A stretch of 64,000 nucleotides of DNA, from the NCBI GenBank assembly GCA_963808895.1, contig CAWEHL010000004.1:559972-623971 (forward strand), written 5' to 3'. The first letter of the stretch is position 1. Each line of letters opens with the position of its first letter. The translations under genes and the position numbers were made by a program. Below are positions 247-18,744 of the stretch, in pieces. Origin of the DNA: an uncultured Chloroflexia bacterium. GTDB taxonomy: Bacteria; Chloroflexota; Limnocylindria; Limnocylindrales; CSP1-4. A model generated the notes under the pieces. It worked only from the letters and a program-made list of their open reading frames with translations. It did no database searches and was not told the DNA's origin.

Positions 247-336
247 TTTCGAAAGCACGGCACGCGCGGACGGCTGGTCCAAAGCCAAGGACCGTAGCTG
301 GTACGAGCGCGAGGCGTGGCGGTTCGACCGCCGCTG
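247..336 (+). pseudogene. remnant of ATP-dependent DNA ligase 3' end (ligase-tail copy 1)
   Basis: reads YVFESTARADGWSKAKDRSWYEREAWRFDRR*; nucleotide core tggtacgagcgcgaggcgtggcggttcgaccgccgc nearly identical to the end of the ligase gene at 15047-15109; no start codon. Confidence 0.5.
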
Positions 337-755
337 ACCCGTCGGCAGTCGCGGAGAAGCTACGCGCTGGAGATGGCCCTGACGGCGGCGCTCATAGCGG
401 GACTCTATGTCTGGATGACCAACGGAGGTCCGGAGTGGTTCGGCTCCTACTTCAGGGCAAATGGTCAGTACACCGAGACCTAGCGGAGACACGCCTAACG
501 AAGGGCATGGCGAATGAAGTGACCGGCCGACCGAAGCCGTCGCGGCCGTAGCCCACCTCCTCGTCCGAACGCGTCACGCTCCGCGCCCAGCCACTCAAGC
601 GACCGTCCCCCGCATGGCCTGGTGGTCATCGACGGCCGCGATTCAAGATGGAACGAGTCGATTGCCGTCCGACTCATGATGGGTAAGGACGGCCAGTCGG
701 CCGCAACAAGTCCGGTGTCCGATGCAGCGAGACCTCGTCCTTCGCGCTAGGAACG

Positions 756-1280
756 GTGACCACGACGGCCTTCACGGCCCTCGCCTCGGAAGCGTTCGCG
801 CGGCTGCACCGGACCGCACGGCTGATCCTCCGAAGCGACGATCGGGCGGCTGACGCAGTCCAGGACTCGCTCCTGGCCGCCTGGCTGCACATCCGCGCCG
901 TGCGCGACCCGGAGCGGTTCGACGCCTGGCTCAATCGGCTCCTGGTCAACGCCTGCTATCGGGAGGCGCGGCGGGTCAAGCGGCGCGGGGTCGTGGAGAT
1001 CCAGATGACGCTGCCCGACGCACGGGCACCCGGTGACGCGCAGGAGCTGACCGCCGTACGGGACCAGCTGGAGCGAGGCTTTCGTCGGCTGTCCGCCGAG
1101 CAGCGTGCCGTGCTCGTGGTCCACCACTACCTCGGGCTGCCGGATGCCGAGGCGGCCGCTGTCCTCGATATCGCGGTCGGCACCTTCAAGTCCCGGCTCC
1201 ATCGCGCCTCGACCGCTCTCCGGGCCGCCCTCGACGCCGACGACCGCCGACCGACCATCGCCGAGGAGTCCATCGCATGA
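756..1280 (+). CDS. ECF (sigma-70 family, group IV) RNA polymerase sigma factor
   Basis: region 2 (DSLLAAWLHIRAVRDPERFDAWLNRLLVNACYREARR) and region 4 (LSAEQRAVLVVHHYLGLPDAEAAAVLDIAVGTFKSRLHRA); GTG start; stop overlaps next start (ATGA). Confidence 0.9.
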   Translation: MTTTAFTALASEAFARLHRTARLILRSDDRAADAVQDSLLAAWLHIRAVRDPERFDAWLNRLLVNACYREARRVKRRGVVEIQMTLPDARAPGDAQELTAVRDQLERGFRRLSAEQRAVLVVHHYLGLPDAEAAAVLDIAVGTFKSRLHRASTALRAALDADDRRPTIAEESIA

Positions 1281-2551
1281 CCGCCCGCGACGACTTCGAT
1301 CGAACGCTCGCCGACTGGCTCGATGCTGAGGCGGTCTCGCCCGTCCCGCTCGGTGGACTCGACCAGGCGCTCGACGCCACGCGCCGCCGTTCGCCCCGTC
1401 CCGCGTGGTTGGCCCGCATCGGCAGTCACTGGATCGGCGGTACGGGGTCGAGCACAGGCCGCGCTGGCGCTGCGCATAGGTCCGAGCGGGTCGAGGGCGC
1501 TCATCTTGCTGGCCCTGTCGCCGCTATCCTGGGCGGCGCGCTCGCCGGAACGGTTTTGGTCGGCGGCGTCCTCGGTCCACGACCCAGCCCGTCGTTGGTC
1601 CCACATCGAGCCGTGGTCCCGCCACCGTCGTTGGTCCCACCTCGAGCATTGGTCCCATCACCGTCGCCGATCTCAACCCACCGCGTCGCTCGAAACGGCG
1701 CGATCGCGGTGACGAGGGAAGGTGCGATCGCCCTGATCGACCCGGTCACTGGCAAGACGGTGAAGACGATCCCGGTCGGCTCGGCAGAGGTGGGGGACCT
1801 CACATGGGCTCCCGATGGGCGGAGACTGGCGTTCACGGCGACCGGCGGGGTCTGGGTGATGGACGTGTCAGACGGGACGTCGGAGCAGATCCTGAGCTGC
1901 GGCGAGGGAGCCGATGGGTGCACGATCGCATGGTCGCCCGTGGGCTCGCGCATCGCGGTCGCCCACGGTGACACGCTCGAGCTGGTCGATCCCGACGGCA
2001 GCAACCGGGCGACGCTCTGGAGGCAGATCCACCCTGTCGGCAGAGCTGGGCTGTCGCAGCCGACCTGGTCACCCGACGGAAGCCGGATCGCCGTCAATGG
2101 GTGGATCGGCCAGGGAAGGGGTCTCTATACCATCGATCGGGACGGGTCCAATCTGACCCCCCTCCTCGGCCCGCTTCCGGGAATCGGAACGTACGACCCT
2201 GCCTGGTCGCCCGAAGGATCGACGATCGCGTACTTCGGGTCGACCGATATCCGGGTCTGCAGAGAGAATCGAGTTACCTCGACGACCACCTGTGATGACC
2301 AATGGCAGCTCCATGTCATGTCCCTCCGTCTGGACGGCTCGGAGCCACGCGAGCTGCACAAGGCGGGGATCTGTTATTGCATCGGGGGCGCCCCGAGCCT
2401 CACCTGGTCGCCGGACGGGACCAGCCTCGCGTTCGTCGGATTCGGAAGTGACACCTTTCCAGGCGGCCTCACCGTGATGAACGCTGATGGAACCGAGCTG
2501 CGCCAGGTGACGGAGGACGGCGGCGGTCCGGCCTGGCAGCCGGTTCCGTGA
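1277..2551 (+). CDS. putative anti-sigma factor: short cytoplasmic N-domain, one TM helix, Pro-rich linker, extracytoplasmic TolB-like beta-propeller
   Basis: translationally coupled to the ECF gene; TM LAGPVAAILGGALAGTVLVGGVL; repeated WSPDG/WAPDG propeller blades (APDGRRLAF, WSPVGSRIAV, WSPDGSRIAV, WSPEGSTIAY, WSPDGTSLAF). Confidence 0.8.
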   Translation: MTARDDFDRTLADWLDAEAVSPVPLGGLDQALDATRRRSPRPAWLARIGSHWIGGTGSSTGRAGAAHRSERVEGAHLAGPVAAILGGALAGTVLVGGVLGPRPSPSLVPHRAVVPPPSLVPPRALVPSPSPISTHRVARNGAIAVTREGAIALIDPVTGKTVKTIPVGSAEVGDLTWAPDGRRLAFTATGGVWVMDVSDGTSEQILSCGEGADGCTIAWSPVGSRIAVAHGDTLELVDPDGSNRATLWRQIHPVGRAGLSQPTWSPDGSRIAVNGWIGQGRGLYTIDRDGSNLTPLLGPLPGIGTYDPAWSPEGSTIAYFGSTDIRVCRENRVTSTTTCDDQWQLHVMSLRLDGSEPRELHKAGICYCIGGAPSLTWSPDGTSLAFVGFGSDTFPGGLTVMNADGTELRQVTEDGGGPAWQPVP

Positions 2552-2589
2552 GCTAGCTCCAGTTCGCTCTGCGCTTTCCCTCGGTCGCG

Positions 2590-2809
2590 CCACTCCGTGA
2601 CGTCAACCTCCCGGTCGGCACGGCACTGGCCGGCGCGTGGACCGACTGCGACATGTACATCGGTTCGGAGTTCCGGATCGACGTCTCGTCGGAGGCGGGT
2701 AACCGCTTCGACCAGAACGTGACCGGCTTCCGGGCAGAGGAGGAGTTCGGGTTCAACGCGACGCCGTATGTCGCGACCGGCAAGTTCGTGAAGATCCTCG
2801 GGCTGTAGT
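2590..2809 (+). pseudogene. 3' gene fragment, family X copy A (...RFDQNVTGFRAEEEFGFNATPYVATGKFVKILGL*), no start codon
   Basis: open frame begins right after a TAG; last ~100 nt about 92% identical to 20448-20546 (53 nt identical); parent gene not recognised. Confidence 0.4.
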
Positions 2810-2823
2810 CCCGAACATGACTA

Positions 2824-2852
2824 GGCCCCGGTCGGGTTATCCCGCCGGGGCC
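2824..2852 (+). terminator. GC-rich stem-loop ggccccgg...ccggggcc followed by ttctcc
   Basis: inverted repeat immediately after the family X fragment stop. Confidence 0.4.
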
Positions 2853-3024
2853 TTCTCCGTGCCCGCTTTAAGGTAGCGGCGGACGCAAACTGAAACGATT
2901 AACAGCCCTTGTGCGAGCGGACCAACGGGCCCACTATCGAAGTCAGGCAGCGTCACGCGCGCTCCAAGACAGCATCTTCTGCCGGCACCCCTGACGTCTG
3001 ATCCTCCCTGCGAGGAGTCGAACG

Positions 3025-3243
3025 ATGTCGGAACAGCCGATGATGATGTCCGCGGGACAGATCGCCACCACCAAGGCACCGACTGCGACATCGGTGTGGA
3101 CCCCTCGCGCTGGTCACTACGGCGCTGTCGCCGTCGCGAACGCAGAGCGAGCACACCGGGCCATGATCGAGAAGCGACTCGATCAGGTGACGGCTAGGCC
3201 CCGCCGCCAAAGCGCACCACGCCATCGCGTTTGGATGAGCTAG
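3025..3243 (+). CDS. small hypothetical protein (72 aa)
   Basis: ATG preceded by gaggag SD in a lower-GC promoter-like stretch; abuts the next gene; no recognisable domain. Confidence 0.3.
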   Translation: MSEQPMMMSAGQIATTKAPTATSVWTPRAGHYGAVAVANAERAHRAMIEKRLDQVTARPRRQSAPRHRVWMS

Positions 3244-3247
3244 AGCG

Positions 3248-3577
3248 GTGCACATGTCCTCGCGCATCCTGCTGGTCCTTGTCGCCGGTGCCGCGATCGG
3301 CGGCGGGTGGTGGATCCTGTTCGCGATCAACGAGGTCCCCATCGCGGTGATCTACAGCGCCCTCTGGACCATCGGAGTGCTCGTCGCCGCACGCACCCTG
3401 CTGGCACTCGGGTTGGGGTACAACCGGCTAACAGCCAGAGAACCAGCGCCCGGCGTCAGTCCGGCACCGGACACTGCGGCGCACCTCGGCGATCTCCGTG
3501 ATCGAGGGGTGATCTCCAATGAGAGCTACGCCAGCGAGCTGGCGAGCTCGGCGCATTCGGACCCCCTAAAGGGGTGA
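3248..3577 (+). CDS. small membrane protein with C-terminal SHOCT-like domain
   Basis: two hydrophobic helices then HLGDLRDRGVISNESYASELAS (SHOCT-like). Confidence 0.55.
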   Translation: MHMSSRILLVLVAGAAIGGGWWILFAINEVPIAVIYSALWTIGVLVAARTLLALGLGYNRLTAREPAPGVSPAPDTAAHLGDLRDRGVISNESYASELASSAHSDPLKG

Positions 3578-3587
3578 ACCTGGTCGA

Positions 3588-3750
3588 GCCCTCGGTGTTG
3601 GCTCGTCGAACGCATGGAGGATGGTCGACTCGGGGGAACGTCCTCAAGGACCTGATCTCGACCTATCGCGACTGGACCCGCGTAGGCTGGTCCAAGGTGA
3701 AGGACCGGAGCTGGTACGAGCGCGAGGCCTGGCGTTTCGATCGGAGGTAA
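3588..3750 (+). pseudogene. remnant of ATP-dependent DNA ligase 3' end (ligase-tail copy 2)
   Basis: reads LNLVEPSVLARR...VLKDLISTYRDWTRVGWSKVKDRSWYEREAWRFDRR*; colinear with LSALVDPSVSLVEQMTDGRLEGIVLKDRTSTYRDGSRAGWTKVKDRSWYEREAWRFDRR of the ligase gene; internal frameshift; no start. Confidence 0.5.
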
Positions 3751-3753
3751 AGG

Positions 3754-4635
3754 GTGGGGTCGCGGATAGTCGCGTTGACGGCGATGGCGACAGCGGCTCT
3801 CGCTGTCTGTGCCTGCACAGGACAGCTGAGCTCGAGCGTCGCGCCGTCGCTCCCGTCTCCCTCGCCATCGCCTAGCACGGCTTCGACGCCGACCGCGAGC
3901 ACCGCGTCGGTCGTCGCCGATCCGATGGCCAGTCCTAGCGTCCAGGGCAACTTCAAGGTCGCCGCCGATGGGCGCTCACTGGCGATGGACTGCTACGGGA
4001 ACGGCAATTCGACCGTAATCCTCGAGTCGGGCGGCGGCGCGATCGACGAGTTCACCAATGAGCCGCTGACGCGGCTGCTCGCCGCGGAGACCCGGGTATG
4101 CCTGTATAACCGGGCAGGTCGCCCGCCAAGCGATCCTGCCCCGAACAAGCCGCGGGAGGCCGAAGACGCGGCCGCCGATCTCAATGCGCTCATGAAGGCG
4201 GCCGGCGTCCCCGGACCGTATGTCCTGTTCGGTCGATCCTTCGGAGGCATGCTGGTCACCTTCTACGGCTCGAAGTACCCGTCCGATGTGGCCGGTGTCG
4301 TCGTCTTCGACAGTCCGGCTCCTAGCGCCACCATGTCCGCCGCGGAGTTCCCCGAAGGCACTTGGGACTATCCCGAGAACCTCGAGCACCTGAACGTCCG
4401 AACGGGCTTCGAGAACCGGTTCGGCAAGAAGCCCGTGCACATCGACGCACCGCTGACACTGATCAGCACGACGTCAGGCGAGTCGCGTCCCGAGGACCAC
4501 TACTGGCTCCAGGTGAGTCCGACATCGAAACAGGTCGTCCTGCAGGGAGGGATGGAGGTCATCGGCACGCATGCTGACCGGATCGCTTCCGAGATCCTCG
4601 CATTTGTACGCGCCCCTGCGGCATCGGGTTCATAA
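3754..4635 (+). CDS. secreted alpha/beta-hydrolase-fold lipoprotein
   Basis: signal peptide with lipobox LAVCAC; Ser/Pro-rich linker; GRSFGG nucleophile elbow (GxSxG). Confidence 0.8.
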   Translation: MGSRIVALTAMATAALAVCACTGQLSSSVAPSLPSPSPSPSTASTPTASTASVVADPMASPSVQGNFKVAADGRSLAMDCYGNGNSTVILESGGGAIDEFTNEPLTRLLAAETRVCLYNRAGRPPSDPAPNKPREAEDAAADLNALMKAAGVPGPYVLFGRSFGGMLVTFYGSKYPSDVAGVVVFDSPAPSATMSAAEFPEGTWDYPENLEHLNVRTGFENRFGKKPVHIDAPLTLISTTSGESRPEDHYWLQVSPTSKQVVLQGGMEVIGTHADRIASEILAFVRAPAASGS

Positions 4636-4888
4636 CTAGCCCGAAACCACGTCGAAGGGCCTTAGCTTCCACGCCCAGCCACTCCGTGACCGCCGCCCTC
4701 GTCGCCTCTAGCGCCGAGCGTCGGTCGTTCGCGTCTATCGACAGCCACGGGTAGCCGAGGACGTACCAGCGACCGTCCTGGGCCTGCATAGCGCGGTACA
4801 CCGGCCTCTCACCGCGCCCGATCGTGCGGATGGCAACCTGGACGCAGGACGAACTGACGCGGATCGGGGATGCGGAGGAGATCGACAT
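4559..4888 (-). CDS. small conserved hypothetical protein, paralog family S copy 1
   Basis: AIRTIGRGERPVYRAMQAQDGRWYVLGYPWLSIDANDRRSALEATRAAV; a ~130-nt stretch is >90% identical to 18360-18500; C-terminus differs from copy 2 by a 1-nt indel, and an alternative frame ends at 4636 abutting the hydrolase stop. Confidence 0.45.
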   Translation of the reverse strand: MSISSASPIRVSSSCVQVAIRTIGRGERPVYRAMQAQDGRWYVLGYPWLSIDANDRRSALEATRAAVTEWLGVEAKALRRGFGLVMNPMPQGRVQMRGSRKRSGQHACR

Positions 4889-5090
4889 CGCCGCTCGTCG
4901 GCCCGACGGCAGCCTCCGCCAATTCGTGACGATCTGGGTCGTTCGCTACATCGTGTGGTCGCCTACCGGCCTGCTGGGATTCGATCGTCCTGGTGGCTTT
5001 GCGTTGGTCGATCCCGACCGACTTACGCTGGCGCCGGTCGGACTGCACATCGGTCGCTTTCCCAGCTGGGTGGCCCTCGGCGAGGGCTAG
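4824..5090 (+). pseudogene. fragment of a PPOX-class / DUF2255-like (pyridoxamine 5'-phosphate oxidase fold) protein
   Basis: N-terminus TWTQDELTRIGDAEEIDIAARRPDGSLRQFVTIWVVR fits the family, then degenerates with no continuation in any frame; overlaps the 5' end of the opposite-strand small gene. Confidence 0.3.
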
Positions 5091-5319
5091 GAAATGCGAC
5101 GACGCTCGCGGGTCGTCCGGACGCGGTCAAAGGAGCCTGCAGAGGCCCGGTGCGACGCAGGCCACCGGAGAAGGCGCCGGGCCAGACAGAATGGCCCGTC
5201 CTGCGGCGGATGCAGACGTGACGGCCCGGGTCGGCACGTCGTATCGTGGCGCGGGCAGTTACGGCTCGCTCGTCGTGCGATCGGTGACGATGCGTTCGGC
5301 CGTCACAGGAGCGTGCGCT

Positions 5320-5811
5320 ATGGCTCGGCTCCCGTCGCTCGGTCCGCGGGGAGAGGGCTGGGTCCTGCTGCAGGTCGTGCTGATCGTGCTGGTCGTGGCA
5401 GCAGCGTGGTCGCTTGGGCCAGACTGGTCCGGCCCGGTCCGAGTCGCGGGCTATGCGGCCGGGATCTTGTCGCTTGCCTCAGGTCTGTTCCTAATCTTCC
5501 GTGGAGCGACCGACCTTGGGACAGCCCTGACGCCGGTACCGCGTCCACGCGAAGGTGGTGAACTCGTGGAGACCGGCGTGTACGGCGTCGTCCGCCACCC
5601 GATCTACAGCGGCCTCATCCTTGCTGCCTTGGGCGGTGGCCTCATGCAGGCATCGCTGGCCGCTCTCGGGCTGACGCTGTGCCTCGTGCTCGTCCTTTGG
5701 TTGAAGTCGACGGTCGAGGAGCGGTGGCTCGAGCTGCGTTATCCGGGCTATGACGCGTACCGCGCGCGGACGGGCCGGTTCATCCCGCGAGTAGGCGGGT
5801 CTCGCAGCTGA
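5320..5811 (+). CDS. isoprenylcysteine carboxyl methyltransferase (ICMT/PEMT) family membrane methyltransferase
   Basis: TM helices; LVETGVYGVVRHPIYSGLIL and EERWLELRYPGYDAYRARTGRFIP motifs; start at ATG 5320 within track ORF 4993..5811. Confidence 0.8.
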   Translation: MARLPSLGPRGEGWVLLQVVLIVLVVAAAWSLGPDWSGPVRVAGYAAGILSLASGLFLIFRGATDLGTALTPVPRPREGGELVETGVYGVVRHPIYSGLILAALGGGLMQASLAALGLTLCLVLVLWLKSTVEERWLELRYPGYDAYRARTGRFIPRVGGSRS

Positions 5812-6063
5812 GGCATCTCGGCGAGGTACCCGCTCGCCGTCATGCCCACACGAAGCGGTAGGCGTTCGAGCAGTGGACACTGCGCGCGAGGAGTTCCGAG
5901 ACGGCCATCCCGGCTGGGGCGAGCTGGCTCGTGCAGGAGATCTCCTTGGGCAAATACATCCGGCAGGTGACCTTGCCGCGAGCGCGCCATTCGAGCCGGC
6001 GCCCCCGGGTGCGGCTCCCTCCGAGGTACGATGCCTCCACCGATGTGGGGAAGGAGTTCCTCC

Positions 6064-6519: not shown

Positions 6520-6534
6520 GCATAAGGACGGGTC

Positions 6535-6612
6535 GGCTGTCGCGACCCCGGCTCCGGTCCCGGACCCTCGATCCCGGCATCCTCCTGGCGGCCCAGTCGG
6601 TTCGGGCCGACC
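6535..6612. repeat. dispersed ~100-nt repeat family D, copy 1
   Basis: ccccggctccggtcccggaccctcgatcc ... gggccgaccggggct; related to 17040-17110, 18745-18832, 22445-22555 and partly 11520-11610. Confidence 0.5.
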
Positions 6613-6639
6613 GGGGCTAGGCGCAGCGAGCATGGTCAC

Positions 6640-6946: not shown

Positions 6947-6981
6947 GTCCCCGGATGTGTCGCTGCCTTGTCGCGGTGTGT

Positions 6982-8023
6982 CTAGGCTGCGGCGGGCTCC
7001 AGTGCCAGCACATTAAAGGCGCGAACCCAGTCGCCCTTACCGGCGAGACGCAGGCTGCCGAGGTCCTGCACCACGACCACATCCCGCACGGCCTCATGCG
7101 TGGCCTCATCAATGAGGATCTGGCCGGGTCCGGCGGCGGCCTGCAAACGCGCGGCGATGTTCACGGAGTCCCCGACGACCGCGTAATGCATGCGGCGCTC
7201 CGAGCCGACGTTGCCGGCGATGACCTCGCCGGTGGTGATTCCGATCCCTGCCTGCAAACGCACCTCCGGCATGGTCGGGATCTCGAGGCGCATCACCGCT
7301 GTCTGCACATCGAGTGCCGCACGCACAGCCCGCTCGGCGTCATCGGAGTGCATCACTGGGGCGCCGAAGAAGGCGAAGACGCCGTCGCCGAGGAGATCCG
7401 CTACGGTGCCCCCATGGCTTTCGACGGCATCGCTGACGGCAGTCAGGTAACGGTTCAGGAGCGCCGAGCGTTTCCTCTGGCTCATGCTCAGCGGCCAACG
7501 TCGTGTAACCCCTGATGTCCGCGAACAGCGTCGCGACACGGCGCCGATCACCGCCCAGCGCGACGGCGAATGGATCACGGAGCGCCTCGGCCGCGACGCT
7601 CTCGCTTACGTAGCGCCCGAGCAGCTCTCCGAGCCGGTCCTGAAGCGCCTTCGTCCGGAGGAGTGAGCGCAATCGGGCCGACAGCTCAATCTCGTCGAAG
7701 GGTTTCGATAGGAAGTCGTTGGCTCCAGCCTCCAGCCCGCGCGCCTTGTCTTCGCTCAGGTCGAGTGCGGTGAGCAGCAGGATCGGCAAGCCCGCGTATT
7801 CCGGCTGGCGCCGGAGCCGCTCGCAGACCTCGATGCCGTCGAGCCCCGGCATCATCACGTCCAGGCACACAAGATCGGGTTGCTGCTCCGCGACTGCTTT
7901 GATCGCCGAATGCCCATCGCGCGCCTCGGCCACGTCGTAGCCCTGCCGCGTCAGGAGTTTGCGCAGAAGCGCGAGGTTGGCGGGCTCGTCGTCAACGGCG
8001 AGGATGAGAGGTCGGTCGCGCCT
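6982..8023 (-). pseudogene. response-regulator receiver domain fused to class III adenylate/guanylate cyclase domain, with an apparent frameshift near 7497
   Basis: REC: MRRDRPLILAVDDEPANLALLRKLLTRQGYDV...DFLSKPFD; cyclase: TLFADIRGYTTLAAEHEPE then frame change to ALLNRYLTAVSDAVESHGGTVADLLGDGVFAFFGAP...VVGDSVNIAARL; start ATG overlaps upstream stop (ATGA). Confidence 0.7.
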
Positions 8024-8781
8024 CATGCCAGGAAGCCCGCAACGCTGTCCGCGAATGTCGCGAAGTCGATCGGTTTGCTCAGGTAGCCGTCGAACCCGTT
8101 GGCCAGCGCGCGCTCGCGATCGCCGACCATCGCGTGCGCGGTAAACGCGACGACGCACAACTTGGCGGTGCTTGGACTGGCGCGGAGCTCGTTGATCGCA
8201 TGCCACCCGTCCATGTCGGGAAGCCCGAGATCCATCAGCACGAGGTCGGGAGCTGCTTCCCGAGCGAGCGCGATCCCGGTCGCCGCGGTCTCGGCGCTCA
8301 GCACCTCGTGCCCGGCGGCGCGGAGCAGCTTCGTAGCCAACGCCCGATTCGGCGGGTGTGTCCTCCACCACCAGGATCGTCGCCATCAGTGCCGGACCAG
8401 CGGCCTGCGCGTCGCTGTCCGTCAACGCACGAAGCAGGCTGTCCTTCGCGACCGGCTTGGCGACGTGAGCATCCGCGAGATCTGGCGTGTCGGCCGCATC
8501 GACGACAGCTGACGCACGATCACGGGTATCCCCATTGTCACTGGATCGGTCTTGAGAGCGTGCAGGATCTCGCGGCCGCCATGTCCAGGCACGAGCATTC
8601 CGAGCAGGATCACGTCCGGTGACACGCGTCTCGCGTCGCTCAGTGCCCGGCTCCGGTCGGTCGAGCCGACGACGCGATACCCCTCGCCGGCGAGCATCTT
8701 CTCTAGTAGCGGCGCTACCGAGGGATCATCGTCGATGCTGAGCAGCAAGCGTCTCGCCATCGCCAGCTCCACCCCGCTCAA
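8023..8781 (-). pseudogene. tandem receiver (REC) domain protein(s), two apparent frameshifts
   Basis: REC A: MARRLLLSIDDDPSVAPLLEKMLAGEGYRVV...GIPVIV, C-terminal part in another frame (DAADTPDLADAHVAKPVAKDSLLRAL); REC B: MATILVVEDTPAE then frame change to ATKLLRAAGHEV...MDLGLPDMDGW...GFDGYLSKPIDF. Confidence 0.65.
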
Positions 8782-10379
8782 CCGTCGTCGCCGTGGCCGG
8801 CGCCGTGCGAGCAGTCGACCGGCAGCCTTAGGAAGAACACGCTTCCATGTCCGGGTTCGCTCTCAAGCGTGATGTCGCCTCCCATCGCCCGCGCGAGACG
8901 ACGGCTGATCGCGAGACCCAGACCAGTACCGCCCTCGCCTCCCTCGGCCTGACGGAACTCCTCGAAGATGGCCTCATGCTGATCTGCCTCGATGCCGCGT
9001 CCGGTGTCGCGCACCGATACCATGAAACTCGAGTCTGCCGCGCCGCTGGTCTCCACTTGCACCTCGCCGTCGCTGGTGAACTTGAGTGCGTTCCCGAATA
9101 GGTTGACGAGGATCTGGCGGACCCGCTGTCGGTCGAGCACGACCTCCGTCGGGTGCGCCGGCGTCAAGCCACGCGAAGCTGATCCCTTTCTGTGCGGCCA
9201 ACGACCGGTGTTGCGCCACGACTGATTCGACGAGTTCCCGCGGGTCGAAAGGTTGCGGGTCGAGAGTGAGCTTGCCGGCTTCGATCTTCGACAGGTCGAG
9301 GATCTCGTTGATCAGTCCGAGCAGGTCCCGCCCGCCCTTCTGGACCCAGCCCAGCGACTCGGTCTGCTCCGGGTTTAGGGGGCCATCCACGCCCGCGAGG
9401 AGTGCGTCGGTGAAGCCGAGGATCGCGTTCATCGGCGTTCGCAGCTCGTGGCTTACGCTCGCCAGGAAGCGCGACTTCGCCTCACTCGCGCGCTTGAGGG
9501 AAGCGTTCGTCAGCTCTAGTTGGTGGCCCAACGCACGCTGATCCTCGAATATGCTGCGCCAGACGCTCGCTCGTCTCGTTCAGGTCGCGCGCGAGGCTTC
9601 CGAATTCGTCCCGGTTCGGCACCTCCACGCGTTGCGTGAAGTCTCCCCTAGTGACCGCCGCAAGTGCTCGTTGCATCTTTCGCACCGGGAGGATGATCGG
9701 CCACGAGAAGACGAATCCGAGGATCAGTGCCACGACCACGCTGGAGGCCGAGAACGCGACGACGGCGGAAGTCGAGCAGGATTCGGTCGGACTCGAACGC
9801 GCCCCGCGCCTGGACCATCTGCTGCTCGGCCTCGGTGATCAGGTTCCGCATCGCGGCCTCGAGCACATGCGAGGCTGGGTGCTCCTCCTCCAGATGAAGG
9901 CGCGTGGCAGCGCGGATGTCACCGGCCTCGTACAGCGCCAATGTCCTGGCGCTGGAGGCCGAGAACCCGTCGTTCGTGGCTCTCACCTCGCGGAAGAAGT
10001 TCGCCTCGGCCGGGTCAGCCCGCTCCATCTGGTCGAGGAGGTCGATGAATGTGTTCTTCGCTTCGGCAATCTGCGTGTTGTATTTGTCCTCGTGCGTCAG
10101 GAGCGCCATGGCCCGGAAGTGGCTTTGCGCCGTGACGGCGTAGAGCATCTGCTGCGCTCGGCTGGTCTTCTCTTGGAGGTGGTTGAGCTCGCCGACGCGT
10201 TCGTTCATCCGCCCGATCACGAGGAGACTGAGGATCGCCATTCCCACGAGAAGCAGGGCGCCGGCGAGGAATCCGAAGAGCAGCTTTCGATGGACTCCCG
10301 CACTCGTGCCGGCGACTGCGTCGACCACGGGTCGGAGCCAGCCCGTGAAGCGGGGCAATCCGGGCTCGACAGGCATCAT
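8778..10379 (-). pseudogene. sensor histidine kinase (TM sensor, HAMP, HisKA, HATPase_c) in at least four frame segments
   Basis: sensor with TM (LLFGFLAGALLLVGMAILSLLVIG); HAMP (WPIILPVRKMQRALAAVTRGDFTQRVEVPNRDEFGSLARDLNETSERL); HisKA (RFLASVSHELRTPMNAILGF); HATPase (QILVNLFGNALKFT...GTGLGLAISRRLA); each block in a different frame; stop overlaps REC start. Confidence 0.7.
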
Positions 10380-10662
10380 TGGCTAGGAGTCTGCGCCGGA
10401 CGCCTAGACCCTCGCAAGGACCGCGGCCCGCTTCGTCGCCTGAGAACGACGTCAGCTCGCGACGCCACCGCCGCCCTCAGGGCAGACCGGCGGTCGTCAG
10501 CCCTATCCCCAAATCGCACGCACGCGTCGGCCGGCACGCCGGAGATGCCACGTCGGACTCGACCCAATATGCCTCCGCGACTCAAAGTCCCATCCTCCAG
10601 TGGCTCGAACGGATGCATAACGGCTGCCGCCGCTGTTCGTTGTGACAAGGGCATCGCCCGAC

Positions 10663-10702
10663 GAACCCCGCTCGATGAGTCACCTCCGACCGAGCGGGGT
10701 TC
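10663..10702. other. perfect 12-bp inverted repeat (gaaccccgctcg / cgagcggggttc) with 16-nt loop, in a 550-nt lower-GC non-coding stretch
   Basis: read directly from the sequence; lies upstream of the kinase operon on the minus strand. Confidence 0.5.
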
Positions 10703-11015
10703 TCTGTGTCCCGCACCAGACGCCATAACGGTCCGAGCGCAACTTCCTTGTCACTGTCAGGGGCCTCCGGAGTGGCTCGATCTTCTCCCGGCGGTACGAA
10801 ACTCTCCGCGGGGTCCCCGCGAAACATGCACTCGTTTGTGCGATCGAGTCCCTGATACTCAATCGGAGTCGCTCATCAGGAGGACGACTACGGTGATCTA
10901 TTAAGGCCACCGCGCTCATGGCCGAGCTGGATGGCATGCTCGTCGAAAAACGGAGCCTCACCCCGGAAGAGCGTGCGTCCCTGCCGGAGAGCGTTCGGCG
11001 GTTCTTCGATGAGCC

Positions 11016-11270
11016 CTAGACGAGATAAATCGCAACTAGGCCGTCACTGCGGCAGTTTCCTCGTGTTGTGCTGCTCCACGATCCAGGCCGCGGCGCGGTA
11101 CCAATACTCCGGGTCCTCGGTATGGATGCCGGCAGCGCGCGGTGTGTTTCCCAGGCATCGAGCCACGCGTCGGCCGACTCTGGCGGCATGGCGTGGTTCA
11201 TGAGCCATCCGCGGATGGTCAGTCGCCGACCTTCGTAGCCCCGGCCATGCTCATCGCGTCGGTACTTCAC
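11016..11270 (-). CDS. small hypothetical protein, tandem paralog family T copy A
   Basis: ...RRLTIRGWLMNHAMPPESADAWLDAWETHRAL; paralogous motifs in the next two copies. Confidence 0.35.
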   Translation of the reverse strand: MKYRRDEHGRGYEGRRLTIRGWLMNHAMPPESADAWLDAWETHRALPASIPRTRSIGTAPRPGSWSSTTRGNCRSDGLVAIYLV

Positions 11271-11297
11271 GCTCCCGTTCGCCTGGACCTCCGCTGT

Positions 11298-11507
11298 TCA
11301 TCGATCCACGCGATACCTGCGCCCCAGTTGTCGGGCGACGCACGGTCGACCCGCGAACCTCGGCCTCGACCTCCCAGGCATCGCACCACGCCTCGGCGCG
11401 CTCCAGCGATATCCCGTGTCCGTTAGCCCATTGCGCATCGGGACGCGACGCGCCATGAAGATGCGGTTAGGGTCAGCGCGCCTCGACATGTGGTAAGTGT
11501 CGCCCAA
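11298..11507 (-). pseudogene. family T copy B, frameshifted
   Basis: MSRRADPNRIFMARRVPMRNGLTDTG then +1 frame ISLERAEAWCDAWEVEAEVRGSTV; aligns with copy A (RR-L/V-T/P-I/M-R...E-S/R-A-D/E-AW-L/C-DAWE). Confidence 0.3.
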
Positions 11508-11923
11508 CGGCCGTCAGCTAGTCTGTCGCGGCCCCGGCTGGACCGCTGGCTCGCTATCCCGCTAATCCCCCAGCGGGTCAACCTGTCGCGGCCGACCGGG
11601 GCCCTCCGATGTAGCGGGCACGTAATCCGTAGGTCGGCCTACGCCATTTCTCGGTCGACCGCGTCAGCCCTAGATTCTCGACGTGCGCGGGCGCTCGAAA
11701 TCCGGTGTTGTCGATCTCGACCCAGGGCTCCGGATCATCTGCATCCCGTCGACTGACGCTGAGATCTGCGGCGTCGTCGAGCGCCTGTACAAGTCAATCT
11801 CGTGGGTGACCCCCGACAGGCTCGAGGCCGCGCTACGTGACATCTACCCCAACGCCGTCGTTCGGCGTCGCGAACGATCCGGCGACCCGATGCCGACGTG
11901 GTACGTGTTCCGCGAGCGAGGCG

Positions 11924-12244
11924 CTAGCGGGCTGGACTGACGGCTAGGTCGGTAGCTTCCTCGTCTTCCGCTGGTCCTTGATCCAGTGCGCGGCACCCTT
12001 CCAGTAGTCGGGATGAGCCGTTCAAATCCCTGTCGATCGGCCTGTTCTCGCACGCGTCGACCCACGCCTCGGCCGTCGCCCGGCCATCCCATCTGGCACG
12101 AGACGACTTTCGAGTCGCCGTCGCGAGTCGCCTTGCTGGTGACATTCCCGAACGCTTTGCCAAATTCGCGCCGTTTACCATGACCAGGGACCTCGATGAG
12201 CATGAGCAAACCTTGCGCGCCGCCTGGACCGAAGCATTCGCCAT
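11924..12244 (-). pseudogene. family T copy C, divergent and frameshifted
   Basis: ...ARWDGRATAEAWVDACENRPIDRDL in one frame and ...VVSCQMGWPGDGRG in another. Confidence 0.25.
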
Positions 12245-12932
12245 CGCGAGGGACCTCGGGGCGGGCTACGTCGGGACCGACATGCTGTTGATGGGCTTGA
12301 CCCGCACCGAGGGTGCGGCCGCGGAGGTACTTGCCGCGGCCGGCGCGACAGAGGCCGCTGTCGCGGCGATCGTCACACCGACGAATCGTGACGGAGCGAT
12401 GCCGGCAGACGGAGGCGAATGCCGGCGCATCCGCGCCTGAGTCCCGCGGCGCAAGAAGCACCGGGTCGCGCGGAAGAGGATGGGCATCGCTCTCGGCGTC
12501 GCCGACGGATCGATCCGCCTACTACTCGCCCTCACCTACGACCGCGACGGTATTCACAGCTCGCTCCTACGCCGCGTAGGCATCGACCGTGGGGTCCTCG
12601 TGCAGGCGCTCGCTGATAGCGGCGTACGGGTCCCCCCTAGACCACCCCCGCCCGACCGGACCCCGCACTCCGTATGGGTGACCCTCCCGGACCATCAGGC
12701 GCGCGTCGTGGCGGCCGAACTGGCGCGCCGCTCGACCGAGGACATGGACTATTGGTTCGACTCGTGGGGCGGCGCCAGCTGGGGATACGGCGGCGTCGAG
12801 GACCGGCCCGGTGAGGCACGGATCTACGGCGAGGAGCGGATCGACCTGCCCACTCTGGTGCCGGAAATCCTTGCCGCAAGTGGCTACCCGCCGCCGCCAG
12901 ACGATTCCTCGGAGACCCACCGAGAGGTCTAG
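12180..12932 (+). pseudogene. Clp N-terminal (Clp_N) double-repeat domain protein interrupted by an in-frame TGA at 12438-12440
   Basis: repeat 1 LLMGLTRTEGAAAEVLAAAGATEAAV; stop; repeat 2 LLLALTYDRDGIHSSLLRRVGIDRGVLVQALADSG in the same frame. Confidence 0.45.
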
Positions 12933-13002
12933 GCCCGATGATCGCCCGGTTTCAAGCCCTGCAGTCCATCCACTCTCGTTGGCGACGACGCCATGGGCGC
13001 CC

Positions 13003-13550
13003 CTACACACGTGCGAGCGCCGGAGGTCTCTTCGCGCCCTCGATCAAGAGCCATACAAAGGGGATCAATAGACTGAACACGCCGAGATTCGGAATCGTGA
13101 TTGCAAGGAAGGCGCCAGCCGCGCTGATCAGGTGGTACGCGTAAGGATCGGAATAAGTGCCCAGCCGATAAGCCGCGTCCTGCCCTCGGTGCCCAGGAGC
13201 AAGAGACCGATGAACCAGACGTCGATCCCGAGTACGAGTAGATGTTCCGGCCAATTCCCGAGCAAACCGAACGCGATGTCGTGCAGCGTGGCGTTCTCGG
13301 GAAAGATACTGCTGAGCGCCTGAAGCAGGAAGACCACGGCAAAAAGTCCTGCCGACACGGCCCCTATCACGTCGATCCAACGGGGCAGTCCGAAGTCAAA
13401 GACCGCCCTCACGAACAGCAGCATGCCGACGCCAAGGACGAGATGGACAACGATGTCGGGCGCGCGCTCCCCGAATGCTTGGGACGCCACCGCCAGTGGC
13501 AACGACAGCAGCATGGTGATGGCGGACGAAACCGCCCAGATGGATCTCAT
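13003..13550 (-). CDS. hypothetical integral membrane protein, apparent frameshift near 13170
   Basis: strongly hydrophobic throughout; frame A ends ...LLLGTEGRTRLIGWALIPILTRTT*, frame B continues ...YSDPYAYHLISAAGAFLAITIPNLGVFSLLIPFVWLLIEGAKRP. Confidence 0.4.
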
Positions 13551-13996
13551 GTCATACCTCGATGGCGCCGATCCCCGAAACTTGCGGCAGACCTTACCTT
13601 CGCGGCCGAAGCACCGAAAATGAGCGCAACACCCTATTGGGATGTCCGGCCGGGGCCTAGGTTCGCCGTCAGGAACCTTCGGGCCACGCGGAGGTTGGAC
13701 CGTCGACCGGGAGTCGGCGGCGACTTCGCCGTCGCGACTGGGATCTCACTCCTTGCGTCGAGCATGCGGCCCGCGGTTTGTGTCCGCCCTACCAGCGGGC
13801 GGGCTCGCGATCTGGTGGACTCACTGGCTGTTCCATTTCGTCGAGCGCCAATCGCTCCCACTCCGACCGCAGCTCCTGCTCAATCAATCGGAGCCGGAGC
13901 CATTCGGCGGTCCAGGGCAGGGCGTCATCAAAGGCGCGCTTGGCGTCGTACCACGCGGCGTACGCCTCGGATGGCGCGGCGTCGGCATCGTTGTTG

Positions 13997-14194
13997 CTAT
14001 CCCCTCGACCGGCGCGGGTCGGGCCGACCGATCCGGACTCGGCCGCCCCGGCCCTTTACCACGAGCTCGCCGCCACCGTTCGCCAGTTGCCGTCGAGCTG
14101 CTTGCTCGGCTTCCTGTTGCGTCCTGAACGTTTGCTGCTCGCCCGTCACCTGCCAACCGCCGCCGCTCTTTGGTCCGACCGTCACTCTCGCCAT
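13997..14194 (-). CDS. DUF2188 family small protein
   Basis: MARVTVGPKSGGGWQVTGEQQTFRTQQEAEQAARRQLANGGGELVVKGRGGRVRIGRPDP matches the DUF2188 pattern (GGW.V....F.T..EA...A..LA....ELV.HG.dG.IR); aggaag SD. Confidence 0.6.
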   Translation of the reverse strand: MARVTVGPKSGGGWQVTGEQQTFRTQQEAEQAARRQLANGGGELVVKGRGGRVRIGRPDPRRSRG

Positions 14195-14203
14195 GGTCGC
14201 TTC

Positions 14204-14425
14204 CTATTCGCTTTCGTCGGACGACTCCGGGTCGATGCTTTCCGACTCGTCGATTGCGCCGCGTTGTGCTGGGGGGCGATCACCCTTCAGCCGCCGATCG
14301 CGCTCTACGTCGCCTTGCGCCTCGTCAGCCTCGCGCCATCGTGGAGAGTCCCAATCCACGTCGGACGGGTCCGACGTGCCTCGGTCGTCTGGGCCGTCAG
14401 CCGAACTCCGGCGACCTTCGTCCAT
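14204..14425 (-). CDS. small highly acidic hypothetical protein
   Basis: 73-aa D/E/S-rich ORF 9 nt upstream of DUF2188, divergent from the ligase gene; could be chance. Confidence 0.25.
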   Translation of the reverse strand: MDEGRRSSADGPDDRGTSDPSDVDWDSPRWREADEAQGDVERDRRLKGDRPPAQRGAIDESESIDPESSDESE

Positions 14426-15109
14426 GGCATGTCGCCTCCGAGTAGATGTCTACGCGCCGATATCATGGGCGGATGTCCCGGCGGTCGTCCCACAACTCGT
14501 CGCCAACGACGGAACAAGGGCATTGCGACAGGCGATCGCCGATCCGGATCGCTTCGCCTGCGAGCCGAACGTTCGATGGCGTCCGCGGCCTCGTCATCTA
14601 CCAGCCGGAACACGTTCTCGAGATGCGCAACCGGCGCGGCGAGAAGCGCGATTGGTTGCGCGGAGACCCGTTCGAGAGAGGTCTCCGACGCCTAGCCGAG
14701 CGACTCCCGAACCTCTGGGAAGGGACCGTCCTCGACGGAGAGCTGACCGCCGGACGGTTCGAAGGAACCATGTCGGCGCTGCTCGGGTCCAAACGGTTCC
14801 GACCATCGCTGCGGTTCGTCGTGTTCGACGTGCCGATGTTGCTCGGCGCGGACCTCCGCGGGCCTGCCCTGGCAGGACCGGCGTGAACGGCTCGAACTCC
14901 TCGCCCGTGCCTTCGACGTGCCGTTGGAACTCAGCGCGCTTGTTGATCCGTCCGTGTCGCTCGTCGAGCAGATGACGGATGGTCGGCTCGAGGGCATCGT
15001 TCTCAAGGACCGGACGTCGACCTACCGCGACGGATCGCGGGCAGGGTGGACCAAGGTCAAGGACCGATCGTGGTACGAGCGCGAGGCGTGGCGCTTCGAC
15101 CGCCGCTAA
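14424..15109 (+). pseudogene. minimal ATP-dependent DNA ligase (nucleotidyltransferase domain only, ~215 aa) disrupted by two +1 frameshifts
   Basis: frame 0 MACRLRVDVYAPISWADVPAVVPQLVANDGTRALRQAIADPDRFACEP; one extra c near 14588 shifts into motif I (EP-K-FDGVRGLVIYQ), then VLDGELTAG (motif IV); second extra c near 14865 shifts into LPWQDRRERLELL...EGIVLKDRTSTYRDGSRAGWTKVKDRSWYEREAWRFDRR* (motif V); no OB domain. Confidence 0.7.
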
Positions 15110-15222
15110 CAAGGGGTGGGAGTACCCTGTACGGGCGTCCCGTCCGAGTGCCTCCCGCACGCGACGATTAGCGGGTGCCCCGAGGCCACTCCCCATTGCC
15201 CAATGATGGCAAGACGAACGGT

Positions 15223-15465
15223 GTCGTGCCGGAGCTGACGACGACGTCGGCGGCCCTGACCGAATGGCGGGAAGCCGAACGTTCGGTCGCCGTCGCGCGC
15301 CGCGGACGGGTCGCGGCACAGGCGGCGATGGACGCCGCTGTGCTGGCCACCCAGGCCGCGCAGCGGACTGCGGCGGCGGCCAAGGCGGCCCTCGAGTCCG
15401 CGACATTCGCGCAGGCATCAGCCACGGAGACCGCGACAGCGGCGCGCGTCGTGGTGCGCGGTTGA
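15223..15465 (+). CDS. small Ala-rich coiled-coil protein
   Basis: [79 protein letters not shown]; stop TGA overlaps the next start (TTGA); start codon uncertain. Confidence 0.35.
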
Positions 15466-15776
15466 GTGATCATCCCGCGTTGCCGGCCCTCGAGCCAGAC
15501 GAGGAAATCCGTGTCCGGGTAAGCGCTGGCGACAGCGTCGTCATCCTGACGGACAAGCGGCTCGCGATCGCGTCTCAGGACAATCTCGCACTCGATGTGC
15601 CGCTCGAAAATCTGCTCCGGATCGAGTTTGATATCGAGCGCGGCCGTGGAGCGACACTCGTCATCTTTCCGATGCAGCCGGAGGATATGCCGCAGGTCGT
15701 CATGGTCCCTGCTTCCGCTTACGAGGCCGTCGCCCAGGCACTCGTAGTGATCGGGCGGAGACTCTCGCTCGCGTAG
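15462..15776 (+). CDS. small hypothetical protein with PH-domain-like pattern
   Basis: [60 protein letters not shown]; coupled to upstream gene. Confidence 0.4.
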
Positions 15777-16139
15777 GCCGTCGCGTCCCCGGGCTTTCCG
15801 CGGTCAACCCGCCGCGCTGCAAATCCCTGGAAGCGGCAGGTAAGCGCAGACAGGTACGCTGCCACGACCCCCGCTCCGCGTCCCGGTCCTTCGATCTCGG
15901 GCCACCGGCCAGTCGGTCGGCGCCGACCAACGCTAGCGCGCGGGATCAGGGCTCGGGGATAGGGACCTCCCACGGCTGTCACCGAAGGTCGCATCCCACC
16001 GCGACTTGTGCGGCTCGGGTAGCCGAGGTCGACGGACCCGATGGCCCACATTCTGTCCGCGCTGCGGCAACGGTCTTGCGGCCGTGATGGCGCCCAGATG
16101 GGTGTGGCACCAAGGCTGACCACGACGCGGGGTTGCGGG

Positions 16140-16484
16140 TTACTCCGTCCGATCGTTTGGGCTGTCCACGACCTCGCGAGCCCATTGGTACGCGGCGGCC
16201 GTCGCAGGAAATCCGGCCGTTGGGATCGCGATCGTGATAGCGTGCAGGAGGTCGGGCGCATCGATTCCCTCGCTCAGTCCTCGTCGGACATGGGAGCGTA
16301 CGCCCCCCTCCGACGACAACCCGACCGCCAGCCCGAGTTTCACAAGACGCTGTTCGCGATCGCTCAAAGGGCCGGCGCGCCGGCACACATCGCCGAGCGC
16401 GTCGTACGCCCTAGCGAGCTCAGGGTTTTCCGCACGAAGGTCTCGGTACACCCGTGGTAGGTAGCCGCGTCGCTTCTCGGTCAT
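16140..16484 (-). CDS. carboxymuconolactone decarboxylase (CMD/AhpD-like) family protein
   Basis: LPRVYRDLRAENPELARAYDALGDVCRRAGPLSDREQRLVKLGLAV...HVRRGLSEG; full-length 114 aa. Confidence 0.85.
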   Translation of the reverse strand: MTEKRRGYLPRVYRDLRAENPELARAYDALGDVCRRAGPLSDREQRLVKLGLAVGLSSEGGVRSHVRRGLSEGIDAPDLLHAITIAIPTAGFPATAAAYQWAREVVDSPNDRTE

Positions 16485-16918
16485 GGTCCGCTCCTCTCGC
16501 CTCTTCGTCCGGACCTATGATCATGCCTCGTCGCGCCAACCATTCGGCTCAGGCCCTACGGAGCGCCCCAACGCTCGGCCTGCGGGCGACACGGGCTCGG
16601 AGTCCCGTTGAGAGCGTGACTGCGCACGAGCTGAGTCCACGTCCTCGACGATTGACTCGTACGCCGCCCCAAGGTCCCGTCGATCGTTCGCACCCTGAGC
16701 CACTCGTCCGTCCCAGGCATGGCAAGCGCGGGCTTGGCTGCGTGCTGCGCCTCATACGCCTCAAATCGGTGCGGCCCCGGTCGCCATCAGGACTCCATCG
16801 CTATCCGTTCCATGCGCGATGTGTCGATCTCCGACTTCGACCTGATCGCGGATTCGCCTCCGCGGTCGCGTGGCGACCCTGGACGGCGCTAGCGGTCGGG
16901 GATCGGCCCGGGACGTGA

Positions 16919-17029
16919 GTACGCGCTTCGGTCGGCGTACCCATCGGTAAGGTCCAGAGCGAGCTCAGCGGCGTGCGGGCGCCGACCTGGTACGCCTACC
17001 GTGACGGCCACTTTCCGTGGCCTTCGTGA
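16919..17029 (+). pseudogene. possible remnant of an AlpA/excisionase-type HTH protein (no start codon)
   Basis: open frame VGVPIGKVQSELSGVRAPTWYAYRDGHFPWPS* resembles the recognition helix and C-terminus of AlpA/Xis-family HTH proteins (...LGVSRSTVYRWI.EG.FP.P); only ~35 aa; speculative. Confidence 0.2.
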
Positions 17030-17039
17030 CGCTAAGCTG

Positions 17040-17110
17040 ACTCGGCCCCGGCCCCGGTCCCGGACCTCGATACGTCTCCTCCCCCGAGCCGTCAGTCAGT
17101 CCGGGCCGAC
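17040..17110. repeat. dispersed repeat family D, copy 3
   Basis: ctcggccccggccccggtcccggacctcgata...gtccgggccgaccgg. Confidence 0.45.
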
Positions 17111-17328
17111 CGGGTTCTGCTCGGGGGCTGATCCCCAGCGGTGACGTCCAGCAGCGCGCCGAGAAGGAGGATGATCTCGTCCTGATTGTTCACGATCCGC
17201 TCGAGCGTTTCGCTGGTCGCATGGAGTAGGTCGCGGATCTCAGTCAGACCTCGTGGGTGCCAGCCCCGGCGATCACTGTGGTGCCCGACGTATCCGCGGT
17301 CAGCTGGCACGTTCTCGTCAGTAGCCAT
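17092..17328 (-). CDS. small hypothetical protein
   Basis: helical-looking LTEIRDLLHATSETLERIVNNQDEIILLLGALLDVTAG; follows the upstream small gene by 26 nt. Confidence 0.3.
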   Translation of the reverse strand: MATDENVPADRGYVGHHSDRRGWHPRGLTEIRDLLHATSETLERIVNNQDEIILLLGALLDVTAGDQPPSRTRSARTD

Positions 17329-17353
17329 CGTTTGCCGCTCCCGTGGTCCGGGG

Positions 17354-17576
17354 CTATCGCCTGACGTTCGAACGGACGGGCTGTCCCTTCGGATCGGTCA
17401 GCTTGTAACCCGCCTCGTCCAGCTCGCCATCCGCGAACAACGCAAGGTGCTCCAGGTACCGTTTGCCGGTCTCGCTCGTCACCCCACAGGCGCAGACGAT
17501 GCGGGTTCCGACCACGGCCTTGGGTGGATGGTTGTCGATCGCCATCAAGATAATCTCGCCGACCGTATGTGCCATT
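17354..17576 (-). CDS. small putative winged-helix DNA-binding protein
   Basis: MAHTVGEIILMAIDNHPPKAVVGTRIVCACGVTSETGKRYLEHLALFADGELDEAGYKLTDPKG resembles wHTH regulators (RYLE.L...G.L....Y.LT..G); start taken at the internal ATG of ORF 17354..17656. Confidence 0.4.
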
Positions 17577-17671
17577 GGGTCCCACCTCTGAGCAGGGTCT
17601 AGGGTATCGCCCGAGGCCCGCGCTGCGCGGCGATCCAGTCCCAGCGCGCCCGCCATGCGGAGCCCGTCCTG

Positions 17672-17750
17672 CGCGGGTCGGCTGGTTGAAGGTCAAGGAC
17701 CGCAGCTGGTACGAGCGCGAGGCGTGGCGGTTCGATCGCCGCTCGCTACC
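17672..17750 (+). pseudogene. remnant of ATP-dependent DNA ligase 3' end (ligase-tail copy 3), direct repeat of 15040-15109
   Basis: ...RVGWLKVKDRSWYEREAWRFDRR then read-through; about 55 of 62 nt identical to the end of the ligase gene 2.6 kb upstream, same orientation. Confidence 0.5.
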
Positions 17751-18561: not shown

Positions 18562-18744
18562 CGCCGCGTCTCGTCACCCGCCGATTGTGAACGAATGTTC
18601 TAGCCAGGTGTTGCCCTAACGCACCACGCCTGGACTCGTTGTCAGAGGTGCGGGGTCCCCGTCCCGCAAAGACGCCCCGGTGTGCGGTGCCCGTGGGGGG
18701 AACGCATACCGGGGCTTTCGTGTGGACGCCGCGACGACGCCGCA

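Follow-up and report, generated by a model that had tools for sequence, protein, structure and literature searches.

Repeated ligase 3′ ends in the window

The window analysed here is the whole stretch of 64,000 nucleotides (nt) from contig CAWEHL010000004.1 of an uncultured Chloroflexia bacterium (assembly GCA_963808895.1). It carries the pseudogene of a DNA ligase-domain protein and three orphan pieces of ligase 3′ end, which are designated c1, c2 and c4, whereas c3 is the end of the ligase gene itself (Table 1). A repeat search of the window returned them as one family of four direct 68-nt copies (268-335, 3681-3748, 15040-15107 and 17676-17743), which are 81-90% identical to the reference copy. 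A 21-nt core with up to three mismatches matched four times, on the plus strand only, with 0.02 matches expected, and a 41-nt pattern matched three times with 0.00 expected. No fifth copy of the ligase 3′ end was found by tblastn of the whole 64 kb. The first-pass annotation had described ligase 3′ ends repeated at three orphan sites in one orientation, and this was confirmed, with about 0 such copies expected by chance.

Translated in frame, all four copies read ...GW(S/T/L)K(A/V)KDRSWYEREAWRFDRR. The differences among the four copies lie mainly at third codon positions and are mostly synonymous, indicating that the copies diverged while they were coding sequence. A hairpin, GGCGG-TTCGA-CCGCC, is the only one within the repeat and is not retained in c2. 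Neither tRNA nor Rfam features were detected near the repeats, and no Rfam family matched in 1-24 kb; the sole tRNA of the window, tRNA-Arg(CCT) at 58828-58903 on the minus strand, is distant from them. The window has a G+C content of 65-72%, and the coding signal of its first ~20 kb is weak and patchy relative to the remainder.

Table 1. Features at the ligase locus and around the orphan 3′ ends (window coordinates; ORF, open reading frame; aa, amino acids).
Feature	Position	Strand	Remarks
c1, orphan ligase 3′ end	257..336	+	residues ~184-211 and TGA
Small membrane-protein ORF	316..483	+	downstream partner of the source ligase copy of c1
c2, orphan ligase 3′ end	3580..3750	+	residues ~155-211 and TAA; internal frameshift
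Alpha/beta-hydrolase lipoprotein gene	3754..4635	+	Pfam Abhydrolase_1
X1, paralog of small gene X	4559..4888	-	convergent with the c2 relic; ends altered
DUF2188 gene	13997..14194	-	Pfam PF09954; divergent from ligase
Ligase pseudogene	14465..15109	+	~213 codons; c3 is the last 68 nt; reading frame in three pieces
2.6-kb block	15110..17671	.	CMD-family gene 16143-16514 (-) and small ORFs of unassigned function
c4, orphan ligase 3′ end	17672..17743	+	residues ~188-211; stop codon lost (TCG)
X2, 77-aa small gene	18328..18561	-	convergent with c4, 590 nt beyond c4

An OB-less ligase family and the lesions of the resident gene

With the reconstructed window protein as query, 447 homologs were retrieved, mostly of 210-213 aa and all ending in ...REAWRFDRR. 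In 20 family members motifs I, III, IIIa, IV and V (EPKVDGVRG, VLDGEL, RFVVFDVP, EGIVLKD and GWxKVK) vary little or not at all. Motif V is followed by only ~15 residues, and the C-terminal OB fold with motif VI is missing. The nearest solved structure is the LigD ligase domain of M. tuberculosis Rv0938 (PDB 1VS0). Family positions 25-205 align to residues 24-195 of the 1VS0 chain with the same five motifs conserved, whereas the whole OB domain (~residues 200-310 of the 310-residue chain) is missing from the family. Classification with hidden Markov models gave a match to the LigD LIG type far below the family cut-off: TIGR02779, the best NCBIfam model, was matched over positions 11-187 of 302 with 68 bits against a cut-off of 228. 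The structure model of the ligase was of poor quality (pLDDT 52). By these alignments, it is a genuine family of ligase nucleotidyltransferase domains without an OB fold and no truncation peculiar to the window, and the initial description of a nucleotidyltransferase-only ligase ending after motif V holds family-wide, at ~211 aa.

All named sources of homologs were metagenome-assembled genomes (MAGs) of Chloroflexota/Limnocylindrales and soil metagenomes; one fragment came from a Patescibacteria-labelled bin. Single MAGs carry one to two full copies and two to five fragments, and many of the 'full' copies are frameshifted or internally deleted. IMG/VR contained only ~30%-identical phage ligases and no close family member, and tblastn searches of plasmid and phage collections gave no match to the ligase family. 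The ~211-aa family is shorter than known minimal ligases of 268-298 aa. In a literature search on OB-less DNA ligases, none of the papers listed seemed to deal with it. As an apparently undescribed, strongly conserved family of ligase domains that is multi-copy in uncultured soil Chloroflexota, it is worth keeping.

The ligase of the window is 85-90% identical to intact ~211-aa family members, and the Pfam DNA_ligase_A_M (PF01068) match reaches its C-terminus. Its start had been placed at 14424 and was corrected to the ATG at 14465, the N-terminus of the family being (V/M)xPAVVPQL. Two extra bases near 14588 and 14865 had been held responsible for the broken frame; the frame is indeed broken, but by three 1-nt insertions, at ~14475, ~14571 and ~14862. 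We compared them with L001 (an ENA contig of 3.46 Mb) and L123, two independent assemblies with 98-99% identity to the window, neither of which covers c1 or c2 (related loci are designated by L and a number throughout). The insertion at ~14571, inside motif I, is common to the window and copy A of L001, and the one at ~14862 is common to the window and L123. Because both lesions are seen in independent assemblies, the window ligase is a true pseudogene. The insertion at ~14475 is present only in the window among these three and may be an assembly error, since it is unique to an indel-prone assembly. In fact, the window has ~1.3 single-base insertions per kb relative to L001 (~23 per 17 kb), mostly outside homopolymers, and frameshifts without corroboration are therefore unreliable. 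The comparison suggests that single-base insertions over 5.5-25 kb are generally assembly indel errors.

Between 7463 and 9551, nine single-base insertions relative to L001 are spread over a guanylate-cyclase gene and a histidine-kinase/receiver gene, both of which are intact single ORFs in L001. The histidine-kinase/receiver gene (7340-10382, minus strand) is split over four frames in the window versus one 532-aa ORF in L001. Series of overlapping same-strand ORFs with good coding statistics at 23170-26460, 32334-35383 and 51040-52817 are probably further frameshifts in long genes, real or assembly-derived. The DUF2188 gene on the other side of the ligase start is a recurrent upstream neighbour of ligase copies (L001 twice, L006, L007 and L125).

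Strain comparison and the neighbours of the orphan copies

Comparison of the three strains resolved the ligase gene into exchangeable parts. The window gene is composed of an A-type 5′ end (14465-14588, 99% identical to copy A of L001) and a W-type body, whereas in L123 the 5′ end is of the B type, its EPKVDGVRG is intact, and the W body is the same at 100% identity. In L001 the A-type 5′ stump is followed past motif I by a divergent ligase-like stretch and then by unrelated DNA, and 2.6 kb after the stump there is a complete ligase copy with B-type 5′ end and B body. Every switch between A, B and W coincides with the last position of motif I (GTCCGCGG, 14588). Identity between the W and B bodies is 88% until ~5 nt before the stop codon; from that point on, the three strains are 98-100% identical. 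The window gene is thus made up of two paralogs that were fused within a conserved block. Moreover, strains have exchanged the gene body, and the limits of the exchange lie in the two blocks of highest conservation, which is the signature of homologous exchange. The mapped crossovers fall in the most conserved coding blocks, namely motif I and the last ~100 nt, where homologous recombination would be expected to place them.

Ligase 3′ ends had been proposed to be junctions of different DNA modules, and this was borne out, as close strains switch haplotype at or inside them. L044 and L046 are 99.7% identical until 15 nt beyond the stop codon and unrelated afterwards. L021, L025 and L020 have one common downstream unit, ahead of which lie 70, 52 and 20 nt of a ligase 3′ end, respectively. 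Relics decay by indels and lost stop codons. Elsewhere in the region, two ~0.85-kb segments (10581-11421 and 11952-12802) are present in the window and missing from L001, with no junction repeats; at the L001 counterpart of the 11952-12802 gap, part of a Clp_N-domain gene is removed.

The surroundings of the orphan copies were then compared with other loci. Copy c1 sits directly past the terminator-like hairpin of an upstream DUF11 gene. The sequence downstream of c1 has homologs directly behind the full-length ligases of L043 and L051 and behind a longer relic of L099. The membrane-protein ORF was recovered by tblastx at 2775-2969 in L043 and 340-558 in L099, both immediately 3′ of ligase sequence. 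The first 72 nt of c2 show only two differences from its ortholog in L017 and the frameshift is common to both, whereas the remainder shows 17 differences. Conversely, the last 76 nt of c2 are identical to a ligase-hydrolase module of the L090 type and the earlier part has ~22 differences from it. In L090 the ligase is in frame from residue 140, where the contig starts, and the hydrolase is 96% identical to that of c2. Copy c2 is thus a chimera of two lineages with a crossover at ~3652-3675, and this crossover within the ligase 3′ segment attached a different downstream module. The hydrolase accompanies ligase 3′ ends of differing length in four loci (the window, L015, L020 and L090) and is absent from L017.

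Copy c4 is closer to ligase ends of other genomes (91-93%) than to c3. Small gene X, which lies beyond c4 as X2 and beyond c2 as X1, was found within 300-600 nt, or more narrowly 300-350 nt, past the intact ligases of L002 and L003, and in 11 loci it is close to ligase sequence; X1 and X2 share a repeat of 170 nt (4671-4840 versus 18359-18528) with 85% identity. On the strength of these sequence comparisons, c1, c2 and c4 are best regarded as relics of other ligase loci with downstream partners of their own and not as copies of the resident gene.

Forty homologs of gene X were retrieved, none of them named, and X and a ligase copy are convergent in most cases. Gene X had no match in Pfam, NCBIfam, PADLOC or PHROG. 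Its AlphaFold model is confident (pLDDT 92) and has the order alpha-beta3-alpha-beta; no PDB structure matched it at E<0.2 in Foldseek, and by this search the modelled protein does not appear to be a helix-turn-helix (HTH) protein. A pattern search revealed no inverted copy of the repeat core near X. Furthermore, a gene fragment of unknown function at 2557-2805, 0.8 kb upstream of c2, has a fuller paralog at 19671-20549, 1.9 kb downstream of c4 (69% aa identity), and a relative in L017 at 1903-2994. The neighbourhoods of c2 and c4 therefore share more than a ligase end and X.

The statement that the c3/c4 pair brackets a 2.6-kb block of small genes proved correct. The block is 98-99% identical in L001 and L123 and is present in all three strains at hand. 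The suggested excisionase-like HTH remnant (16916-17029) could not be substantiated, with no Pfam match even at E<=5, and a putative winged HTH ORF at 17354-17656 had no match in the searches of small neighbouring ORFs. These covered NCBIfam (nine proteins), PADLOC and PHROGs (eight) and relaxed Pfam (seven), the first three including the ligase, and gave weak matches for the DUF2188 protein only, to PDC-S16 and phrog_3220. No integrase, excisionase or other mobile-element gene was detected in the block by Pfam or by active-site pattern. Copies c3 and c4 are 83% identical and share an identical run of 23 nt, which is no more than unrelated family members share.

Origin of the relics and competing explanations

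The four repeats are probably the 3′ ends of four members of a multi-copy ligase family that have recombined and decayed in an island of fast turnover. Homologous recombination between ligase copies, together with ordinary deletions, would have produced, shuffled and eroded the relics, with ligase genes serving as transferable blocks of homology that border variable DNA, and neither a dedicated site-specific recombinase nor an attachment (att) site would be involved. The c3 gene is nearly complete yet dead: its A-type 5′ end, in which motif I is broken, meets a frameshifted W-type body at that motif. Copies c1, c2 and c4 would be 5′-truncated relics of three other ligase loci that kept their neighbours, that is, the membrane-protein ORF, the hydrolase gene with X1, and X2, respectively. 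Kilobase-scale deletions do separate close strains in this island. The evidence favours such recombination and decay within the ligase family over insertion by an integrase. Duplicated gene 3′ ends alone are no proof of site-specific integration, and the strain comparisons presented here show recombination of paralogs and decay.

Several points weigh against this explanation. It draws on a survey of ~100 related loci of at most 20 kb from genomes and metagenomes, not on whole genomes. The survey counted 40 full-length copies, 57 5′-truncated copies with intact 3′ end, 11 3′-truncated copies, as well as several pieces that are internal or inverted. Relics with a retained 3′ end thus outnumber those with a retained 5′ end by 57 to 11 in the raw counts and by ~32 to 10 (~3:1) after removal of redundancy, an excess that random deletion alone does not predict. 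Easier detection of the C-terminus, the segment of highest conservation, accounts for a part of the excess but apparently not for all of it. In addition, 3′ relics often form arrays in the same orientation downstream of a full gene. Arrays in which a gene or fragment is followed, after 1-3 kb with unrelated genes, by a 3′ fragment, all in one orientation, occur in L001, L007, L013, L020, L044/L045 and L109-L120. Among the ~100 loci there was no 'empty' c3/c4 site, with only three strains covering the block. Tyrosine recombinases lie 0.2-8 kb from ligase sequence in L002, L020, L101 and L103. Finally, the events behind each truncation are inferred. If the ~3:1 excess of array-forming 3′ relics is mechanistic in cause, it would point to a new way of shuffling gene modules.

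Inverted partial ligase copies were also observed. In L044 two of them, at 2625-2936 and 3132-3165 on the minus strand, face outward from a full copy at a distance of 1.25 kb, and in the L005/L019 contig the distance is ~12 kb. Such outward-facing inverted pairs could invert the DNA between them.

An unlikely alternative is the insertion of integrative elements, for which the ligase 3′ end would serve as attB and which would supply the gene with a new 3′ end, while the displaced native end stays behind downstream as an attR orphan; repetition and decay would then generate an array. The model is phage 21/e14 in icd of E. coli, in which the length of the duplication is set by the att core and the integrase is encoded in the bracketed DNA. 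As in icd, the gene is followed a few kb on by a start-less orphan 3′ end in the same orientation, with unrelated genes between. All copies share one orientation, and the order of full gene, cargo and 3′ orphan recurs in the window, L001, L007 and L044/L045. The 3′ bias of the relics, the native downstream flanks retained by the orphans, as attR would retain them, and the tyrosine recombinases in four loci fit this scheme as well. Unlike in icd, however, the boundary of the duplication varies: the left ends of 32 non-redundant 3′ orphans lie 49, 53, 63, 71, 71, 74, 81, 84, 85, 101 and up to 469 nt before the stop codon. No fixed boundary or core was found among these 32, and no motif is conserved after the stop codon in 67 different flanks. 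The identical run shared by c3 and c4 is family background. Copies c1 and c2 lie 11-15 kb upstream of the sole gene, with no ligase 5′ part upstream of either. The orphans stem from other paralogs, whose neighbours they keep, and c2 is a chimera made by homologous recombination. Moreover, 5′ relics, internal pieces and inverted partial copies exist, which an integrase would not make, and the close family is missing from the phage and plasmid collections.

The search for the machinery gave a similar picture. No recombinase family was found by Pfam in candidate ORFs of 1-20.4 kb (ORFs of at least 60 aa, filtered by codon-position GC content), and neither integrase, excisionase nor mobile-element genes turned up in the block or in the window. 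Linkage to integrases was assessed by homology to the L002 integrase and by the active-site pattern. The tyrosine-recombinase active-site pattern is absent from the entire window and present in four of ~100 loci. The gene tables of two contigs with an intact ligase (one of them L125) list no recombinase or mobile-element Pfam family within 10 kb. A run of small unknown ORFs follows the ligase in both of these contigs, and metabolic genes lie upstream in one.

At the DNA level, there is no extra conservation of the 3′ end. A site within it was considered when synonymous identity reached 0.73 versus 0.52 with five genes, and was rejected when the effect vanished with 19 genes and a control per amino acid. 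With the 19 genes, synonymous identity is 0.61 in the last 23 codons versus 0.51 elsewhere, with no consistent excess per amino acid; this difference is due to amino-acid composition. Of the proposal that the ligase 3′ end is a repeatedly used integration target, the module junctions are real, but the integrase mechanism is not upheld, given a variable boundary, no site and no recombinase. The reading of the upstream copies as attL/attR relics is likewise not upheld, as c1 and c2 derive from other paralogs with their own downstream neighbours. An att-like cassette array of the integron type is also not sustained: no integrase was found, the only hairpin of the repeat is not kept in c2, and no Rfam family matched in 1-24 kb.

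Similarly doubtful is a recombinase-independent movement of cassettes. Here, recombination between a gene and a downstream 3′ fragment would loop out a circle of 3′ fragment plus cargo, which would enter another ligase copy through one homologous crossover, perhaps with the assistance of the ligase protein itself. This would explain the arrays, the shared orientation, the varied lengths of the 3′ fragments and the crossovers inside the 3′ segment. It would also account for the same hydrolase cargo behind ligase ends of different length in different genomes and for the common downstream unit of L021, L025 and L020. However, no circle or excision product was seen, and 50-170 nt at 80-90% identity are a poor substrate for RecA. 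The mirror-image process should yield as many 5′ fragments, and all observations fit linear DNA exchange and deletions too. That ligase 3′ ends are the joints of an integrase-free, homology-driven cassette system, in which the OB-less ligase possibly seals or processes intermediates, is less likely still. If true, such cassettes would explain the ~3:1 retention of 3′ ends and why, in many Limnocylindria-type genomes, these ends punctuate variable DNA at intervals of 1-3 kb.

Recombination and decay within a ligase family resemble known processes, and the phenomenon itself is of a known kind; only the OB-less family and the 3′ bias are of wider interest. Polymorphic toxin loci (cdiA-CT/cdiI and rhs tips) contain orphan 3′ modules with a variable toxin tip and a cognate immunity gene. 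They have in common with the ligase relics promoterless 3′ fragments in direct orientation, a small gene after each and homologous exchange in a short conserved block. They differ in that the ligase relics retain a conserved piece, the C-terminus of the ligase domain, while the variable portion is located beyond the gene; Pfam, NCBIfam and PADLOC revealed no toxin or immunity signature. Variable chromosomal hotspots lie between conserved genes, and homologous recombination in these flanks exchanges their content. As in hotspots, the identity of close strains switches at a conserved gene end and runs of small unknown genes lie alongside, whereas the flanking ligase gene exists in several copies, many of them dead, and partial copies of it stay behind.

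Finally, it is very improbable that the copies are a generic intergenic repeat (repetitive extragenic palindrome, REP, or miniature inverted-repeat transposable element, MITE) or an assembly duplication: the window does hold an unrelated palindromic-ended repeat family and its assembly is indel-prone, but the copies align in frame to the ligase C-terminus with mostly synonymous differences, are well short of 100% identity, and recur in their arrangement from c3 through c4 in the independent L001 and L123. The unrelated repeats are intergenic, ~80-95 nt long and located at 6527-6617, 11507-11602, 15849-15941, 17036-17114, 18744-18833 and 22447-22539, and occur also in L010, L020, L021 and L025. 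Their ends are inverted complements, CCCCGG(C/T)CCGGTC ... GGCCGACCGGGG, which gives them a REP/MITE-like appearance.

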